DNA of 64,000 bases. Origin: a virus. Location: positions 1 through 64,000 of the IMG/VR virus record IMGVR_UViG_3300050821_005343. One strand, 5' to 3'. The notes under the pieces were generated by a model. That model saw only the letters and a program-made list of their open reading frames with translations. It ran no database searches and was not told the origin of the DNA. Positions 23,608 to 30,990 of this stretch are shown piece by piece. How positions within the stretch are numbered: the first letter of the stretch is position 1; each line of letters opens with the position of its first letter. The position numbers and the translations under genes are program-made.

Positions 23608-23678
23608 TAAGAGGTTGATTTTATTGCTTGCTGGTGCGGGCGGAGGGACTCGAACCGGCCATATAAATCAAAGACTTA
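23608..23678. other. attP site (tRNA 3'-end core with flanking IHF boxes)
   Basis: 23632-23656 is the reverse complement of GGTTCGAGTCCCTCCGCCCGCACCA; WATCAANNNNTTR matches at 23608-23620 (-) and 23666-23678 (+); abuts the integrase stop. Confidence 0.85.
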
Positions 23679-24689
23679 GGCATTTGTTTTCGACCGATCG
23701 GCAATAAGCCTGGCCAGCGCGGCGTCGGAAAGTTTTGGCACGCTCGCCTTGCGCGCATACAGCTTGGCCATGTCATTGCCAAGGATTGCTCCAATCTCCC
23801 GGTCAGTCGCTCCGCTCTCGGCGAGCTTGACCGCAAGTGCTTTGCGCAGCCCGTGCGCGCTGCCGGGAACGCCTGCGGCGACGCACGCTTCCTTAAACCA
23901 ATTGCCGAACGACTCCTTGACGAACGGGCGGCCGTAGTCGTTCACGACGAACGACTCACCGCCTGGTGTCGCTGCGATCGACCGCGCAAGGGGCGGCAGG
24001 ATGCGAATAGAGACCCGCTGGCCGGTCTTGGCGGTGTCTAAGATGATTGAGCCGTCCATGACGTTCTTCGGCCCTACGCGGGCAGCGTCGCCGCGTCGTA
24101 GGCCGGTCCATAGCATTAGGTCAAACGCCAGCCGTTCTCGCGTACCGACGTGCCAGTGCGACTCGAACCTCGAAAGTTCTTCGGTAGTCCATGTATGGAA
24201 ACCATCGCCACGCAATCTGGAGACTTTGATTCCGACAGTAGGGTCGACGTCTATGTGTTCTCTGGACAAAGCCCATTGAAAAATGGCGCGAAGCGTTCCG
24301 AGGAAGTTTCTGGCTTGAGCGGGTGTGCCAGATCGTGCATCAAGGCTTGCGATGATGAATTTACGGGTCCAGACTTCGAGGGGCTGGTTTCCGGCGCGCT
24401 CGAGGGCGACGCGCATGAGGTTGTCTCGCTGACGTTTAGTTGCAATGGATAGCCTAGACCAAGCCGGGCTTGCGCGGTAGAGATTCCAAAGCCACTCGAA
24501 CGAGCCTTCACCCCTTCTAGGTCGAGCAGCATTTGTTCCCGAGTCTGCAAGTCGGTATTCTCGTAAGAACTCTGCGCTTCCGTAGTCCCCGCGCAGACGA
24601 ACACGCCGCCCAGTTCCCCTCCGATAGTACCAAAACGTTTTACCACGGGATTCCTCTCGGCGTAGGTAGGGGAGTCTTGGTCTGGGCAT
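23676..24689 (-). CDS. int: Tyrosine integrase
   Basis: TGLRRGD, KTG, HGLRK and catalytic Y (LYAR); start at MPRPRLPYL. Confidence 0.95.
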   Translation of the reverse strand: MPRPRLPYLRREESRGKTFWYYRRGTGRRVRLRGDYGSAEFLREYRLADSGTNAARPRRGEGSFEWLWNLYRASPAWSRLSIATKRQRDNLMRVALERAGNQPLEVWTRKFIIASLDARSGTPAQARNFLGTLRAIFQWALSREHIDVDPTVGIKVSRLRGDGFHTWTTEELSRFESHWHVGTRERLAFDLMLWTGLRRGDAARVGPKNVMDGSIILDTAKTGQRVSIRILPPLARSIAATPGGESFVVNDYGRPFVKESFGNWFKEACVAAGVPGSAHGLRKALAVKLAESGATDREIGAILGNDMAKLYARKASVPKLSDAALARLIADRSKTNA

Positions 24690-24869
24690 GCACCCATTAT
24701 GCGTGCGCAACAGGTGGAGGCAAGCGTTTTTGTTTCGGCGCCGGCCCCGCCGACTGCACAATGCAAATCGCGCCGCTCGGCAAAAGCTCGACTTGCCAGA
24801 CGCCTGGTGCTTTGGCCGCCGCGCGTAGGGCGCGTGCAAGGTCGGCTTGGCGGTGGGTGGCGCGCTGGG

Positions 24870-25526
24870 TCACGGCTTGCTCCCCGGAGAGATCGGCAGC
24901 CCGCGCACGCGCTCGAGCAGAACCTGAAGGTTTGCCAGCGCGCGCCAGGCGACCTTGACGTCGTGAAAAAAACCGTCATCGTCGACAGTGCCGGCTTCCG
25001 CAAGATGGCGCATGAGGCAGTCAAGCTGGTCGGTGGACTTGCCGCGCGCCCAGTGCAGCGGCTCGCCCTTGTTGTGCTTCTCGTTGCCGGCGTGTGACAG
25101 AGCGGCGACTTCCGCCAATGCGTCAGGAAAATAACGTAGCAGGCCGGAGTGCATTGGAAGCTTCTTGCGCGATTCGCTGTCAGTCAAGAGGCGGGTCGGG
25201 CAACCGGCGGCGGCTATCAGTTCCGCCATAGCGTCGACAACGGGGGGGTCAAACGCATCTTCAGGCTTTCGGTCCCGCGAACCTTCCCTCTCGCCCGCGC
25301 GAGGCGTGTTGGTGATGCCTGGCGTGTGAACGCCGGTCGCGTACCATTCAGACCCGTCCCATTTGTACTCGCCGCCGTCGACCCACTTGCGGTCGCCAGG
25401 TAGGGGACTGTTGGGGACAGTGACCCAACATGAAGAATCGTCCCGCCAGACCTGCTCTGTACCGTCGGCAAGGACTCGGCGGCCTTCGGTTTTATTTCCC
25501 ATCTCTCCACCCCATCCACTCATCAA
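24870..25526 (-). CDS. dATP/dGTP diphosphohydrolase domain protein (DUF5664)
   Basis: FPDALAEVA..S..G.EKH...HW.RGKS.D..D...RHL...AWRALA.LQ. Confidence 0.82.
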   Translation of the reverse strand: MMSGWGGEMGNKTEGRRVLADGTEQVWRDDSSCWVTVPNSPLPGDRKWVDGGEYKWDGSEWYATGVHTPGITNTPRAGEREGSRDRKPEDAFDPPVVDAMAELIAAAGCPTRLLTDSESRKKLPMHSGLLRYFPDALAEVAALSHAGNEKHNKGEPLHWARGKSTDQLDCLMRHLAEAGTVDDDGFFHDVKVAWRALANLQVLLERVRGLPISPGSKP

Positions 25527-26719
25527 GCCACACTCACAATTGTCTGCCCGTACCAGCCGCTAGCGTTGTGATAGACGTTCGCCGTCATGCTGCGGCCGGA
25601 CTGATAGCCCTTGCCAGCGTGCCAGGCGTCCTTGGCGGCTATCGTCTCGTATGATCTCCAGATCATGCTCCCCGCAGTGCCGCCCTTCGCATAGTGGTGG
25701 ACGTGGCCGAAGTCAGCGTAACGCCAAATCGTGTCGCCCCACATCTTCGGCCATTCGGTTGCGGCAAACAGCGCGGCGCGCTCTGGCTTAAGCTCGTCTC
25801 CGTGCGTCTTGAACAGCATTGTCTTGCCGAACTGGTGGACGAAGAACTTGCTAGGGTTGAAGTTGAGTTCGACCCGCGGCTCGTTGCGAAACCAAGCCCA
25901 CAGCGCGAGCGCCGCAGCCATTGCGATTTCAGGGTCGTGATTGCCGCGAAGCCAGCAGACGATTACTTTTTCGTGCTTAGCAAGTAGCCGCTCGATGCAG
26001 GAAACTGCCAGTTTTAGGCCAACTTGCAAAACCTTGCCGTATCGGCCGTCAACGTCAACCAGTGTTCCCTTGGCGGTTTCGTTCTTGGAGCTGTTGGAAT
26101 GAAAGAAGTCGCCGAGGTTCGTAAAGATAGCAGTTTCGGAAGCCTGCGTGCGCCCGACTAGCTCATCCATCTTGTCGACCAGCAGCTTCTCGCCGATCTT
26201 CAGATCATAAGATGTGCCGGTCTCTGGCTTCCATGCCAGCAAGCCGAGATGGTGGTCACCGAGGATGTAGTCGGTCAGCAGCGCCGATTGCGACACCGTA
26301 GGCCGCACGATCGGCAGCCTTGGCGTTATCGAGGACAGCGCCTCTTTGATGCTGTCGATTGAGAACGCGGCGACGCTGGCATCGCGGTCTGACTTGATCC
26401 ACTTGGCGACTTCTCGTCCTTCCGCATCAACGAGCGCCGAGACGCCCTTGATGCGCTGCCCGGTAGGAAGCTCGTAGACTTCGCCGGCCGCTTTGGTTTG
26501 CTTTACCCAGACGTCTCCGTCCTTCGCGGATATCTGGCGGGTGGCCATCCCCGGCAGCCCCAGCCGGTACCCAAGCGCCCCGCGCTCGGCGCGACGCCGC
26601 TGCTTGCTGCGCCGCAAGCGCATACAGTCGTAGGAGACGTTGGCCTTGTCGGCAGCCTCTTGCAGGCCGCCGCACTCGTCGACAAAGGCCGTCCAGTTGG
26701 TTTCTTGTTCGGCCGTCAT
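25523..26719 (-). CDS. Calcineurin-like metallophosphoesterase with N-terminal HTH
   Basis: GDHHLG, LGDFFH, GNHD, HGD, GHVHH. Confidence 0.85.
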   Translation of the reverse strand: MTAEQETNWTAFVDECGGLQEAADKANVSYDCMRLRRSKQRRRAERGALGYRLGLPGMATRQISAKDGDVWVKQTKAAGEVYELPTGQRIKGVSALVDAEGREVAKWIKSDRDASVAAFSIDSIKEALSSITPRLPIVRPTVSQSALLTDYILGDHHLGLLAWKPETGTSYDLKIGEKLLVDKMDELVGRTQASETAIFTNLGDFFHSNSSKNETAKGTLVDVDGRYGKVLQVGLKLAVSCIERLLAKHEKVIVCWLRGNHDPEIAMAAALALWAWFRNEPRVELNFNPSKFFVHQFGKTMLFKTHGDELKPERAALFAATEWPKMWGDTIWRYADFGHVHHYAKGGTAGSMIWRSYETIAAKDAWHAGKGYQSGRSMTANVYHNASGWYGQTIVSVA

Positions 26720-26750: not shown

Positions 26751-27254
26751 TCATTGGTCGACTTTGTTGGCGTTCAGCATGAACGATGGGTCGATGAATA
26801 TTCCACCTTCGGCAGACGATGCGTTGTGGCCCCCATATGGATTGCCAGACGACGCCGCGTCCCCTCCATTTCGGCACACATGCACAGTCCCGTTTTGGGC
26901 TAGAGAGTCGGCTATGTCGTGCAGGCTATCCTTTAGTCCTTTGGTGAGTTCTATTTCGTAAGACCTTGGTACGCCGCCCTTATAGATGGCCCATAGATCG
27001 GCTTTGCCGTCGTCGTCTCTGGCCAACATCCCCACCAGTTCAAAGCAGGTTGGCAGCCCATTCAGGGATGTCATGACGGGAAGCCCAGCGATAGAATTGG
27101 CTGCAAAGGGGCTATAGATAGCCAATAGCGCGAGCAACGCCGACGCCGATACCTTAGTCAGGGTTGGAGCCGACGAGGTTCGGAACAGCCACGCAACAAC
27201 CACACCCATAATCAGCAGCATAGCACCGATTGTAAGGGAGAACTGAGATATCAT
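26751..27254 (-). CDS. Two-TM membrane protein with soluble C-terminal domain
   Basis: Two N-terminal hydrophobic helices; ATGA-coupled. Confidence 0.75.
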   Translation of the reverse strand: MISQFSLTIGAMLLIMGVVVAWLFRTSSAPTLTKVSASALLALLAIYSPFAANSIAGLPVMTSLNGLPTCFELVGMLARDDDGKADLWAIYKGGVPRSYEIELTKGLKDSLHDIADSLAQNGTVHVCRNGGDAASSGNPYGGHNASSAEGGIFIDPSFMLNANKVDQ

Positions 27255-27841
27255 TTTGTGGATACCGGCTTGAGTGGAGGGTCTACGAAAGTCATATCAC
27301 CATTAGGGGAAAGATCAAAAGACGCTACATTGATCGTTTGTTTTTGATATGTGAGCGATATGTCTTTAGAGAACAGCGTCTTCACTTCAGGATTTAGTCC
27401 TGTAATCTCTACGTGCGCGGGCAGAGGGAGGCCGGGGGCACCTTCATGATTGGAAAATCCGAAGAGATTTACGGCTAAGTCGTAATGCCCAGGCTCAATG
27501 CAGCGGAGAGCTATTGTTTCCTTGACGGCGCGCACCTTCGTCGTGGACCCATCTGGTAGATGGATAATGCTGTCTCCCCACCCCTTATTGTCTTGGTCTA
27601 GGGTTGCGCATCCGACCTGCCGAGAGTTGAAAAAAACCGGCATCTTGCGAGGGGTTTGGAGCCATATGTCAACGTCGGCATCGGGCTCAGTGCTCCACTC
27701 GACAGTCAGTAGATACTCGGCTTTTTCATCAACTCCGGCATGAACCGGCTTAGGTGGATTAACGGCGACGATGACGACGCAGACCACGCACAAGAGAAGG
27801 TCTGAGATGCCGATCCAGATGGTGGAGCGGTCGCGGGTCAT
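27251..27841 (-). CDS. ExbD/MotB/ZorB-like anchor with a YfaP/DUF2135-like periplasmic domain
   Basis: WIGISDLLL TM containing Asp; W....D.D.W...LD.D...E.I......G.Y...VN.F. Confidence 0.65.
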   Translation of the reverse strand: MTRDRSTIWIGISDLLLCVVCVVIVAVNPPKPVHAGVDEKAEYLLTVEWSTEPDADVDIWLQTPRKMPVFFNSRQVGCATLDQDNKGWGDSIIHLPDGSTTKVRAVKETIALRCIEPGHYDLAVNLFGFSNHEGAPGLPLPAHVEITGLNPEVKTLFSKDISLTYQKQTINVASFDLSPNGDMTFVDPPLKPVSTK

Positions 27842-27966
27842 AGATGGAAAGCCCAGCCCAGGAAAACACCAAGCGCCACTAGCGTAATCCAGAAGATCAC
27901 AAGCCCCACGGCTTGCTTAACGCCTTGGCGCTGCGCCCAGTCAGGGTCGCTATCCCACGGGCTCAC
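27838..27966 (-). CDS. 42-aa single-TM protein
   Basis: Hand-translated MSPWDSDPDWAQRQGVKQAVGLVIFWITLVALGVFLGWAFHL; GTGA and ATGA overlaps. Confidence 0.65.
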   Translation of the reverse strand: MSPWDSDPDWAQRQGVKQAVGLVIFWITLVALGVFLGWAFHL

Positions 27967-28418
27967 TTCCGCGCCCTCCGAATGCCTTGCTCAAGCGAAT
28001 AGGTCATCACGCCGATAAGAATCGCCGCCGTGCCGCCGCTCGCCGTGGTGAAGAGGGAGGTCGCCAGCGCCGTGAAGCTGGTTGAGCCACCGGCCAGAGA
28101 TTTTGCCTGAAGGGAAAGGCCGATAGCGGTGCCGACGAACCCCAGCATGACCGCCCATCGCTCGGCGTTGTGGCCGAAGTCCGTCGACGGCGGCTTCGTC
28201 ATGAAGTTGTGATTGGCGGCGTAGTTATCCACCAACCACGCCTGCCGTCCCAGATACACAGCGGTCCCGACGAACAGCACCGCAATCACGCTGGTCATCA
28301 TGCTTGCGTCGTTAGCGTAGACCGATTGAGGAACGCCGCGCGTCCACGCAAAGAATGCGAGGCCGGCGCAGGCTAGGCAGATAACGAAGTGGGATAAGAA
28401 GGTGAGGCGGCCGTTCAC
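27963..28418 (-). CDS. MotA/TolQ/ExbB proton-channel family protein
   Basis: Four TMs; LGFVGTAIG and ALATSLFTTASG...AI motifs. Confidence 0.75.
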   Translation of the reverse strand: MNGRLTFLSHFVICLACAGLAFFAWTRGVPQSVYANDASMMTSVIAVLFVGTAVYLGRQAWLVDNYAANHNFMTKPPSTDFGHNAERWAVMLGFVGTAIGLSLQAKSLAGGSTSFTALATSLFTTASGGTAAILIGVMTYSLEQGIRRARK

Positions 28419-28876
28419 AGCTTCAACTCATCTTTTGGGTCGTTGGCAGGCGTGGCGATTTCGTCTTTGCCGCCGACGATGTCCTTGAGGACCATCACGA
28501 TTGCGGGCGGCAAAATCATGGGCGAATACATCAGGTGAGGCTGATGATCCGACCCCTCTAGCTTTAGAGGAACGATGCAGGCTTCCTTGTCGCCCTTAGT
28601 CCAGAATAGAAGGCTAGCTGACTTTGCCTGAACCAACATCGCGCCGTCGCCGGGGGGCAAGCCTTCCGGGGTGATGGCCGACCCGATATAGACGCCCATC
28701 ATAAGGTGGTACTGACCGGCATTCAGCTTGGTGAACTTCGCGCCCTTCGCGTCAGCCTCCATCTTGGAGATGGGCTCGCACTTGGCAGTCGGCGCTTCCG
28801 CCGCCGAAACCGGCAACGCTATGAAACCCATAAGGAACGATTGTACGATTCCGTACATAAGGCATGCGCGCTTCAT
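28415..28876 (-). CDS. Secreted/periplasmic hypothetical protein
   Basis: GGAGG RBS; signal peptide ending VSA-AE. Confidence 0.7.
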   Translation of the reverse strand: MKRACLMYGIVQSFLMGFIALPVSAAEAPTAKCEPISKMEADAKGAKFTKLNAGQYHLMMGVYIGSAITPEGLPPGDGAMLVQAKSASLLFWTKGDKEACIVPLKLEGSDHQPHLMYSPMILPPAIVMVLKDIVGGKDEIATPANDPKDELKL

Positions 28877-28892
28877 TTGTTGAGACCTCCGA

Positions 28893-28926
28893 ATCAAAAA
28901 GGGGCGGCGAGCCGAAGCCCGCCGCC
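28893..28926 (-). terminator. Intrinsic terminator after the lysis genes
   Basis: GGCGGCGGGC-TTCG-GCTCGCCGCC followed by CCTTTTT. Confidence 0.75.
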
Positions 28927-29010
28927 TAGCAAACATTATTTTGCGTGGTATGCAACACTTGTTTTGTAAATTTGCTCTCTATGCAACTAACATATATGTG
29001 GGGGTGGAGA

Positions 29011-29298
29011 TTAACGGGTGCGGTGAGGGCGGAAAATCGAGATGAGTGAATCGATCCCGCCGTGGTGGATGGCGTGCGGATGCGCGACGTGGGGCGCGGG
29101 GCGCGCTGCGGCGACTCGACTCGGCGCGTGGCGCGGGGCGATCACGGGATGCGGGTCGCACTGGATCATCGTAGTGTAGTCGTTAGGACGAGTTACAACC
29201 CACCTGTTGCAGTCATCGTCTGCAAAAGCGCTAGTGGGGAGCGGCGCGAGTAGGGCGAAAATAATCGATGACCGCGCTAAGCTGCTGCTTAATCTCAT
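29011..29298 (-). CDS. Small exported His/Arg-rich protein
   Basis: Signal peptide (AFA-DDD), two Cys; overlaps the upstream gene. Confidence 0.5.
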   Translation of the reverse strand: MRLSSSLARSSIIFALLAPLPTSAFADDDCNRWVVTRPNDYTTMIQCDPHPVIAPRHAPSRVAAARPAPHVAHPHAIHHGGIDSLISIFRPHRTR

Positions 29299-29623
29299 TC
29301 ATCTGCTCCTTTCTTGCCTCGTCGGAGTCCTTTAATATTTGCAGAGTCGCCGCATTCGCATTTTGCGACGCCAGAATCGCAGCTATTGAGGATTCTGTCC
29401 CCTTAACCTCCACGCCTAACGCCGTCACCGTGATCTTCAACGCATCAATGGCGATATCGTCTGCGTGTAACCTTTCCTCCACGGATTTGTCATACTCCTG
29501 GCTATTGTGGCCTTGAGTAAAATAAGTCTGAGAAAGAAATACCAGCGCCGCCCCGACGACCGCCCCCATCGTCCCATTCCACAAGTTTGATCCTGCTCTT
29601 TCACTTAAAACCGGCATATTCAT
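29231..29623 (-). CDS. Single-TM coiled-coil lysis-region protein
   Basis: One TM then a coiled coil; start codon uncertain. Confidence 0.6.
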   Translation of the reverse strand: MNMPVLSERAGSNLWNGTMGAVVGAALVFLSQTYFTQGHNSQEYDKSVEERLHADDIAIDALKITVTALGVEVKGTESSIAAILASQNANAATLQILKDSDEARKEQMNEIKQQLSAVIDYFRPTRAAPH

Positions 29624-29746
29624 AATATTGACAATCCTGCTAGCGCTGGCAGTGACAAACATGATAACGCACGGCCAGCCGTGCGCACGGTCAGGCCGTC
29701 GCCCATGCCCTGCTAGCTGGGCGACGGCCGTCTGGTTTTTAGTTGG

Positions 29747-30118
29747 TTAGCGGGGGATATCCTCGATAGCGCCGGTTTTGGTAAGGCCAACGGCTGGACT
29801 CGCCGATGTTATGGCGACAACCTTGACGAAGGGAACGCTGGGGCTATTCACAACGTCGACAACGGCCGAGGCAACGGCTGGATTGCTGCCCACGGCGGCG
29901 GCCACACCGGCGGGTGAATGCGTCATCACGCCCCATCTGGTTAGCAGAGCGCCGCCGCCCAGGGTTATGGCAGCAGTCAGGGGAACAATAAGTTGCTGTG
30001 CCAGATCGGCAGGAAGGATTCCTTTCAGGACAAAATAAGATCCGGGAGCGAGCGCTACTTGAACCGTACCTCTAACGATGGACGTCCACTGTTCCTGGTT
30101 CAGGATTTGATGGTTCAT
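29747..30118 (-). CDS. Putative holin
   Basis: Hydrophobic helices; ATGA-coupled to the endolysin. Confidence 0.6.
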   Translation of the reverse strand: MNHQILNQEQWTSIVRGTVQVALAPGSYFVLKGILPADLAQQLIVPLTAAITLGGGALLTRWGVMTHSPAGVAAAVGSNPAVASAVVDVVNSPSVPFVKVVAITSASPAVGLTKTGAIEDIPR

Positions 30119-30990
30119 GGCTTTACCGCCGGAGCCGGGGGGACAAGCTTCGCCACTTCCGCGGCGATCAATCCGGGGAGAGATGTGCTCAGTTGCGACG
30201 TGAGCAACGGCACGAGCGTCGTCACTAGCGAGCCGAGATCGAGCGACGGTGCAGGAGTAAGGGTCGCTCCGGCTGCGGGGGTAGCACCCGAAGTCTGGGC
30301 GGAAAGTTGCGTGATAAGCGCCCGGAATAGGCCGGCCGCGAGGGATTCAACGATCGGCGCAAGCGCCGCAATCAATGCTGGGTCCATAAGTGTTACTCCA
30401 AGGGGTGCGGGTGTGGGCGTGGGGGTTGGCGCTGTAGTTGGCGCGGGGGCTGCAGCGACGGGCGGAAGGGGAACTGAGGCCGGAACGGCCGGCGATAGTA
30501 CAGTAGACGGAGGCGTCCAAACTTTTGCAAATTCCTGTGCGAAACCAATACGAATGTCGAGTACACGACCAGCTGCTGAAGGGTGTTCATACTGGTCACA
30601 AATGTTGGCGGTTAAGGTTTCGAGGCTCTTCGTGCCCGCTACCAAATCGTTCCAGAGGCTTTTATACCAGCCTTTAAGTTCGTAGAGGTAAAACGCTGCT
30701 TGTGCCTCAATCGACTGCCAAGCGCCAAACCACTTTACACCAAACGCCTGCATGTTCGACAAGCGCGCCGCTTGCCCCGTACCGCTATCACGCCATTGGA
30801 AGAGACCGTTGGAACCGTGATCTAGGGCACCAACCGTCACACTTTTGTCTTGGTTCTCTCGAGTCGCATTGCCAACTGAGGCTTGAGCTGATCTCGCGGC
30901 AATCCCAGGAATTGCGAGGTTCGGAAATCCTTGGACAAGGTAATTTGCTAGCTGCGTCTGTCGATCGATGAGATTTACCGGATCTGTCAT
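30115..30990 (-). CDS. Endolysin, phage tail-type lysozyme (Phage_lysozyme2) domain
   Basis: VGN...E, GLFQW, R, Q..F..YEL, YE.P motifs; Pro/Thr linker. Confidence 0.8.
   Translation of the reverse strand: MTDPVNLIDRQTQLANYLVQGFPNLAIPGIAARSAQASVGNATRENQDKSVTVGALDHGSNGLFQWRDSGTGQAARLSNMQAFGVKWFGAWQSIEAQAAFYLYELKGWYKSLWNDLVAGTKSLETLTANICDQYEHPSAAGRVLDIRIGFAQEFAKVWTPPSTVLSPAVPASVPLPPVAAAPAPTTAPTPTPTPAPLGVTLMDPALIAALAPIVESLAAGLFRALITQLSAQTSGATPAAGATLTPAPSLDLGSLVTTLVPLLTSQLSTSLPGLIAAEVAKLVPPAPAVKP

Follow-up and report, generated by a model that had tools for sequence, protein, structure and literature searches.

Flagella, gliding, Ton uptake, Tol-Pal division and Zorya defence all depend on motors of the MotA/ExbB/TolQ superfamily, and to our knowledge all known motors of this superfamily are cellular. 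The TerD fold is known mainly from a poorly understood operon for resistance to tellurite, phage and colicins. Here we analyse a 64,000-nucleotide stretch of viral DNA (positions 1 to 64,000 of the IMG/VR record IMGVR_UViG_3300050821_005343; hereafter the window), in which five linked genes, g1 to g5, occupy positions 26,751 to 28,876 on the minus strand, and three of them make up a conserved cassette encoding a TolQ/ExbB-related protein (A), a partner with a membrane aspartate and a TerD-like modelled fold (B), and a third membrane protein (C). The nearest published concept is that of TolQ-like genes that lack a tolR/exbD neighbour and pair instead with 'transpore-helix' vWA proteins, in which an unrelated periplasmic domain is fused to an Asp helix predicted to lie within a pentamer, ringed by threonines (Mol Biol Evol 2025; PMC12204202). 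The principle is the same as that of A and B; the differences are that the outer domain is vWA in those proteins and TerD-like in B, and that those pairs are chromosomal and heterologous (PMC12204202). The same paper makes no mention of TerD, of a phage cassette or of a C-type third gene.

The cassette is a known kind of machine, the TolQ-type motor, in a new phage variant. We read A, B and C as a self-contained, phage-encoded, ion-driven inner-membrane machine of the TolQ-TolR-TolA / ExbB-ExbD-TonB kind, and give this reading a probability of about 60%. The three genes are:

27963..28418, minus strand: A (g2), minimal protein assigned to the TolQ/ExbB/MotA superfamily, 151 amino acids, four membrane helices
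27251..27841, minus strand: B (g4), single-pass protein with the N-terminus predicted inside, an invariant membrane aspartate (D14) and a TerD-like outer beta-sandwich in the model
26751..27254, minus strand: C (g5), third conserved subunit, two membrane helices and an external domain

Profile comparisons of its family place A, as a homologue of TolQ/ExbB, in the MotA/ExbB/TolQ superfamily. The Pfam model MotA_ExbB (PF01618) matched 66 of 88 A-family members at E ≤ 1e-3, and its cut-off (22.9 bits) was passed by all ten distant A relatives tested (26-37 bits). An hhalign comparison of the 88-member alignment with TolQ/ExbB of two related host genomes gave a probability of 90.3% (E = 1.5e-6) over the last two helices, and the A-family profile matched host ExbB/TolQ at about 1e-5 per genome. 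On these grounds the minimal A subunit of MotA/ExbB/TolQ type proposed in a preliminary description of this DNA is borne out, and TolQ/ExbB stand as its nearest relatives; MotA, named alongside them, is not among the closest, since hhalign of the A family against host MotA gave a probability of only 5%. The top matches of A among PDB sequences are MotA chains (8ucs and 6ysf) in the same register over transmembrane helices TM3-TM4, with E values of about 1, which is not significant. Both motifs earlier pointed out in g2, LGFVGTAIG and ALATSLFTT..G, are present: G93, G96, G100 and G128 are invariant among the 88 members, and T97 and T125 are kept in at least 90% of them. The hhalign alignment pairs T97, T125 and the GxxGTxxG pattern with T128 and T161, which are invariant in host TolQ/ExbB, so that the homology covers the two pore helices with both threonines kept. 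Conserved threonines of TolQ type line the pore and ring the Asp of the partner protein (PMC12204202).

A is predicted to have both ends inside, as in MotA, and the charges of its loops are consistent with four helices. Its cytoplasmic loop is variable (about 24 amino acids in the window, family mean 28) and its tail is of about 10, and there is no sizeable cytoplasmic domain between the membrane helices. A profile search of 1.84 billion representatives recovered only 196 A-family proteins, nearly all of 50-240 amino acids and many of them fragments; by this measure A is a small separate family that does not merge with the bulk of MotA/ExbB. Close relatives of g2 amount to 385 proteins, all from metagenome genomes of Roseiarcus type or of other Hyphomicrobiales, and all without a Pfam family. 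Distant A proteins are absent from PHROGs, found no match in GenBank phages by tblastn, and recovered no loci from viral or metagenome collections when used singly as queries.

Some relatives depart from this minimal form. The match to the A profile is split in two (positions 4-74 and 78-164) within open frames of 275-356 amino acids in some host genomes (G406:C4:160744-161379, G405:C8:880226-880858 and G404:C9:231008-231643), which suggests a longer form of A-like protein, into which a cytoplasmic segment is inserted. Two distant relatives, P0364 (304 amino acids) and P0387 (287 amino acids), carry a C-terminal extension of about 130 residues after the fourth helix, made of a Cys/Lys-rich linker together with a beta-rich domain of no recognised type. 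A soil DNA contig skips 88 nucleotides (window positions 28181-28270) in the variable loop between helices 2 and 3 of A, but one side of the joint is only 30 nucleotides long, so that another strain or an alignment artefact may account for it.

For B, an AlphaFold2 (AF2) model built from a 30-sequence alignment (predicted local distance difference test, pLDDT, 88) has one helix at residues 6-27 and the strands of a beta-sandwich at residues 43-186. Structural comparison of residues of about 40-196 gave a Z score of 10.2 to 2qz7_B, a Streptomyces TerD homologue (134 aligned residues, root-mean-square deviation 3.9), and of 9.0 to 2kxt, the Klebsiella TerD, with the next structure at 5.7. TerD entries also matched in Foldseek (E = 1.5e-3 to 3.5e-3), and viral fold matches include a Rhizobium phage protein of similar size annotated as TerD-like. 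The model therefore shows a TerD-like beta-sandwich in the outer domain of B. Like TerD, B has acidic clusters (D56/D58 and D82/D84), and its sandwich, as modelled, is probably Ca-binding. Unlike TerD, which is soluble and encoded in ter operons, B is membrane-anchored and predicted to face the periplasm, and no ter genes occur among its annotated neighbours.

D14 is invariant in all 139 B sequences compared, 109 of which are distant, at 20-30% identity; conservation of the membrane Asp was a check that the preliminary description had asked for. The residue lies near the inner end of the helix and is essentially its sole acidic residue (mean 1.06 per B helix), behind an N-terminus of net positive charge. 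W49, D56, D58, L81, D84, G87, E108, G118 and P151 are likewise invariant in the 139 sequences, and D82 is nearly so; the pattern suggests that D56, D58, D84 and E108, with D82, may form a metal site. The description of g4 as a single-pass B subunit with a WIGISDLL segment, a transmembrane Asp and no OmpA-like domain agrees with the sequence, the AF2 model, the structure matches and the conservation of D14. Its 'YfaP-like domain' fared less well: DUF2135 (PF09906) was weakly matched by 3 of 70 B members (best E = 0.0039), and the window's own g4 gave no match and has a TerD-like modelled fold.

Sequence searches otherwise returned little for B. None of the 70 members matched Pfam TerD (PF02342) at E ≤ 0.1, a search of PDB sequences with the B profile gave only a chance-level match, and a distant B gave one weak match to a PHROG of no assigned function. 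For g4 and g5 nothing was found in Pfam, PHROGs or PADLOC, and NCBIfam gave only chance-level matches (E > 0.05, far below cut-off). Close relatives of g4, 131 proteins, again occur only in Roseiarcus-type and other Hyphomicrobiales metagenome genomes, and none has a Pfam family.

C occupies the TolA/TonB position in the gene order. A hidden Markov model of distant C proteins recognises the g5 orthologues of Roseiarcus-type loci (E down to 1.8e-9) and the window's g5 at 0.065, and tblastn links the latter to the Roseiarcus-type orthologues at about 1e-20; on this evidence C is one family, with W16, K28 and G51 as conserved residues. Distant C proteins combine a Gly/Lys-rich linker with a conserved motif like FYELPPPKFP at the C-terminus, and the window's g5 has only a short Gly/Ser-rich stretch. 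In many of them, for instance at L132:2795-3436, L185:1247-1924 and L194:3704-4354, the Gly/Lys-rich low-complexity stretch is long and is followed by a terminal motif of the form SQEQ..MFYELPPPKFP, which has the look of a short docking motif carried at the tip of a linker that spans the periplasm. Distant C is absent from PHROGs and had no tblastn match in GenBank phages. A feature search of the Atlas among named clusters returned only DUF4811, at 0.77, which is chance level.

The carrier of the cassette is a complete temperate soil phage: the window comes from a virus record of 77,861 bp that has direct terminal repeats and is rated 100% complete, so that 'phage-encoded' in the preliminary description was correct. 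The survey of operon conservation that it had proposed was carried out on distant loci retrieved with an alignment of distant A proteins, which gave 378 viral contig loci and at least 431 metagenome loci, 80 of each being kept; the contigs include some of 100-527 kb. In every one of the 141 kept loci with sufficient downstream sequence, a B homologue (E down to 1e-34) begins only a few bases from where A ends, on the strand of A; the 15 kept loci that lack B are all cut short by the edge of the contig. The gene after B encodes two helices in 132 of 140 of these distant loci. The order A, B, C was also found in 21 related loci. Among 401 sampled Pseudomonadota genomes B was found in 14, and 11 of 12 fetched Pseudomonadota genome loci have the A-B-C order, the twelfth holding A and B only.

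Among cultured phages the trio is confined to Rhizobium phages, where every gene is annotated as hypothetical. Carriers include 150-kb Pootjesviridae such as RHph_I1_9 (gp146-148), P10VF and RL38J1, and 68-kb phages such as RHph_N3_19; p040 of phage 16-3 is a weak match. The synteny of A, B and C is strict across very different phages. Their neighbours vary (sigma factors, GDP-mannose dehydratase, ERCC4 nuclease, primase, terminase), which indicates that the trio is a self-contained module and not part of a lysis or replication block.

We infer the assembly, ion flow, topology and role of the machine as follows. A would form a ring, a pentamer by analogy with solved relatives, with both pore threonines and the conserved Gly motifs located in its last two helices. 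B would place its helix in the pore, where the invariant D14 would take up and release protons, and its TerD-like, probably Ca-binding sandwich would anchor to the wall or sense it in the periplasm. C would be held by its helical hairpin and serve as an output arm reaching toward the peptidoglycan or the outer membrane. Because A is almost without a cytoplasmic domain, work would have to be delivered in the membrane or the periplasm, and in this the machine would resemble Ton/Tol rather than flagellar stators. Our best guess is that it would maintain or remodel the envelope of the infected or lysogenic cell. A complex prediction with four A and two B chains (B residues 1-45) and deep alignments, at a ratio of 4:2 and not 5:2, scored 0.11 against a mark of 0.32. 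A wider proposal, which we regard as tentative and somewhat doubtful, is that many phage lineages (temperate soil, marine jumbo and T4-like rhizobiophages) carry such an autonomous proton-driven motor, in which a minimal TolQ-type ring, a TerD-fold Ca-dependent wall anchor and a hairpin-anchored output arm would perform mechanical work on the peptidoglycan or outer membrane.

Set beside the cellular systems, the cassette has most in common with Tol and Ton. In addition to the likeness of A to TolQ/ExbB, B appears to be single-pass with its N-terminus inside and its Asp near the inner helix end, the gene order runs from ring to Asp-helix protein to a third membrane-anchored periplasmic protein, and output would be expected outside the cytoplasm. 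It differs from them in that A has four helices in about 150 amino acids and no cytoplasmic helical domain, in that the TerD-like sandwich of B replaces the ExbD/TolR fold, in that C is anchored by a two-helix hairpin, and in being carried by a phage. With MotA-MotB and PomA-PomB it shares a four-helix A subunit and a partner with an Asp helix; A, however, lacks the torque-generating cytoplasmic domain, and B lacks the OmpA-like domain and has no plug (MotB_plug matched 1 of 70 B members, weakly, at E = 0.004). ZorA-ZorB, like the cassette, belongs to this motor superfamily, is non-flagellar and has a link to phage-host conflict. The cassette has no long ZorA tail, no peptidoglycan-binding domain of ZorB and no ZorC/D-type partners, and is encoded by a phage and not by a host. 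None of the five proteins matched PADLOC, ZorA and ZorB models included, at E ≤ 1, and the Zorya link drawn in the preliminary description thus found nothing behind it.

Several observations weigh against the motor reading. No experiment or solved structure exists for any cassette member. The window's A falls below the gathering score of PF01618 (15.2 bits against 22.9; E = 0.018, residues 88-144), scoring 16.7 bits against MotA_ExbB in a six-frame search, and AF2 gave only a poor model of the monomer (pLDDT 58). ExbD gave no Pfam match in the 70 B members, and hhalign of the B family against host ExbD/TolR returned a probability of 0.3%; by these comparisons B is an analogue of ExbD/TolR/MotB and not a member of that family, to which it had earlier been likened. 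TonB/TolA have a single helix and an SHLS-type His; C, by contrast, has two helices and lacks any conserved His in the membrane. Finally, 14 related genomes have an intact orphan B, with its Asp and with no A or C within 5 kb, so that B may act even where no A lies beside it. The orphans (L025:10001-10606; also L008, L010, L011, L014-L018, L021, L023, L027 and L028; frameshifted in L033) all lie at one syntenic chromosomal spot, with the order DapE-like gene, CI-like repressor, small genes, B, GNAT gene, MgtC and YebC.

These orphans hint at another reading, in which the phage proteins would not act by themselves but would mix with the TolQ/ExbB or TolR/ExbD of the host, the helix of B for instance plugging host rings. 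Tol-Pal or Ton would then be blocked or redirected, with the result that superinfecting phages or colicins are excluded or the envelope is changed. The closeness of A to TolQ/ExbB and the CI-like repressor beside the orphan B in the 14 genomes fit such parasitism of a host motor, and Tol and Ton are established routes by which filamentous phages and colicins enter (PMC10424213, PMC7391070). We nevertheless hold it unlikely: the strict co-inheritance of A and B in 141 of 141 loci argues that the partner of B is its own A, a full A was found elsewhere in all five orphan-B genomes searched, and B has no detectable similarity to host TolR/ExbD.

The motor reading has also to be weighed against the surroundings of the cassette in this phage, where the minus-strand order is structural and tail genes, a tail-lysozyme-like gene, a holin-like gene, a membrane and coiled-coil gene, the five genes, an exonuclease, a diphosphohydrolase-like gene and an integrase:

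30115-30990, minus strand: tail-lysozyme-like gene
29747-30118, minus strand: weak holin-like gene
29231-29662, minus strand: membrane and coiled-coil gene
28903..28926, minus strand: terminator-like hairpin at the boundary between the lysis genes and the cassette (10-bp stem, 9 G-C pairs, T-run)
28415..28876, minus strand: g1, lineage-specific accessory gene for an exported protein, signal peptide (...LPVSA/AEAP)
27838..27966, minus strand: g3, 42-amino-acid single-helix open reading frame, strain-specific insertion
25523-26719, minus strand: DNA-repair exonuclease, phrog_704
between the exonuclease and the integrase, minus strand: dATP/dGTP diphosphohydrolase-like gene
23676-24839, minus strand: integrase

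The cassette here directly follows lysozyme, holin-like and spanin-like genes, as it might if it were a gated proton leak or a proton-motive-force (PMF) sensor that would set the moment of lysis, govern a wall hydrolase tethered to the membrane or bring about cell death on superinfection. One further lead, and only a lead, points the same way: the Atlas model of g5 has a TM score of 0.67 to a viral cluster of 297 amino acids whose members all carry Phage_lysozyme. However, the terminator-like hairpin between the lysis genes and g1 sets the cassette apart from them, and elsewhere the trio lies among replication, sigma-factor, sugar-metabolism or packaging genes and not among lysis genes. None of the 132 C genes examined has a lysozyme fusion; nor did a search of proteins of 416-2000 amino acids find longer fused C proteins, fusions of about 300 amino acids lying outside that range. 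A lysis or depolarisation device is thus improbable. Less probable still is a passive complex without ion flow, in which A is a degenerate TolQ-like scaffold, B a membrane-anchored Ca-binding sensor or adhesin of TerD type and its Asp structural: A does lack the cytoplasmic domain found in every characterised relative, B and C fall in no motor-partner family, and complex prediction yielded nothing usable, but the retention of a lone helix acid in 139 of 139 sequences at 20-30% identity, together with the pore threonines and Gly motifs of A, is the proton-path signature of the superfamily, for which a purely structural role hardly accounts.

All five genes are on the minus strand at the coordinates first reported, and the four overlaps read from the sequence are those described: GTGA at 28415-28418 (g1/g2) and 27963-27966 (g2/g3), ATGA at 27838-27841 (g3/g4) and 27251-27254 (g4/g5). 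The 'five-gene operon' holds in the sense of five linked genes; those conserved together are g2, g4 and g5 only. These form the core, g1 being a lineage-specific accessory and g3 a strain-specific insertion, and the exported protein and the 42-amino-acid peptide are not core parts, since relatives of g1 are displaced and g3 is absent from relatives.

The start of g1 had been placed at 28876, and this is supported by a GGAGG 9 nucleotides upstream of the ATG. The hairpin (28926-28903) lies just upstream of both, within the longer version of the g1 open reading frame, which rules out the longer start at 28936. A sigma-70 promoter scan found none upstream of g1 on the minus strand, and the cassette may be transcribed by read-through, attenuation or an unusual promoter in 28937-29010. 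Relatives of g1 occur only in Roseiarcus-type loci, mostly downstream of C and not upstream of A, and no family was found for it in Pfam, PHROGs, NCBIfam or PADLOC. Two read-sized contigs of 151 nucleotides in one soil metatranscriptome cover 28586-28882 at 100% identity, the upstream one ending 6 nucleotides before the ATG; they hint weakly at expression of g1, and DNA carry-over is possible. The rest of the cassette had no RNA cover in that metatranscriptome, which is uninformative.

The small gene g3 had no match in Pfam, PHROGs or PADLOC, and none of the 18 related A-B-C loci examined contains it. In a soil DNA contig of about 94% similarity, 27963 is followed immediately by 27840: precisely the 122 nucleotides (27841-27962) that hold g3 are missing, and the overlap between the stop of A and the start of B is recreated as TGATG. 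Absence from relatives and this exact skip mark g3 as strain-specific, a natural presence/absence polymorphism created by a 122-nucleotide indel.

Just downstream of the trio lies the SbcD/Mre11-type exonuclease (25523-26719), and a gene of this type is found likewise in the lytic Rhizobium phage RHph_I1_9 (L199:5099-7471), where a small open reading frame and a late sigma factor stand between it and the trio. The two phages are unrelated, and this may be coincidence.

We found no description of the cassette in the literature, coverage of which was incomplete, so that this is weak evidence of novelty. The partner proteins B and C belong to no described family: those of the window have no Pfam or PHROG family, and the wider B family has only weak, scattered Pfam matches. 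New here are the TerD-like fold modelled for B, the negative comparison of B with ExbD/TolR, the accessory status of g1 and g3 with the 122-nucleotide indel, and the orphan B loci in bacterial chromosomes.

If the motor reading is true, the hundreds of viral contigs in which the cassette occurs would imply that viruses supply a converter of PMF into energy at the envelope themselves. A, with about 150 amino acids and no cytoplasmic domain, would be the minimal natural scaffold for studying how ion flow is converted to work. Should the wider proposal hold as well, the cassette would represent a viral machine of a new class, and no natural member of the 5:2 motor superfamily would be smaller. 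A TerD-fold partner would give that fold a first mechanical context. The cultured Rhizobium phages that carry the trio, RHph_I1_9, P10VF and RL38J1 among them, make genetics on this machine possible now.

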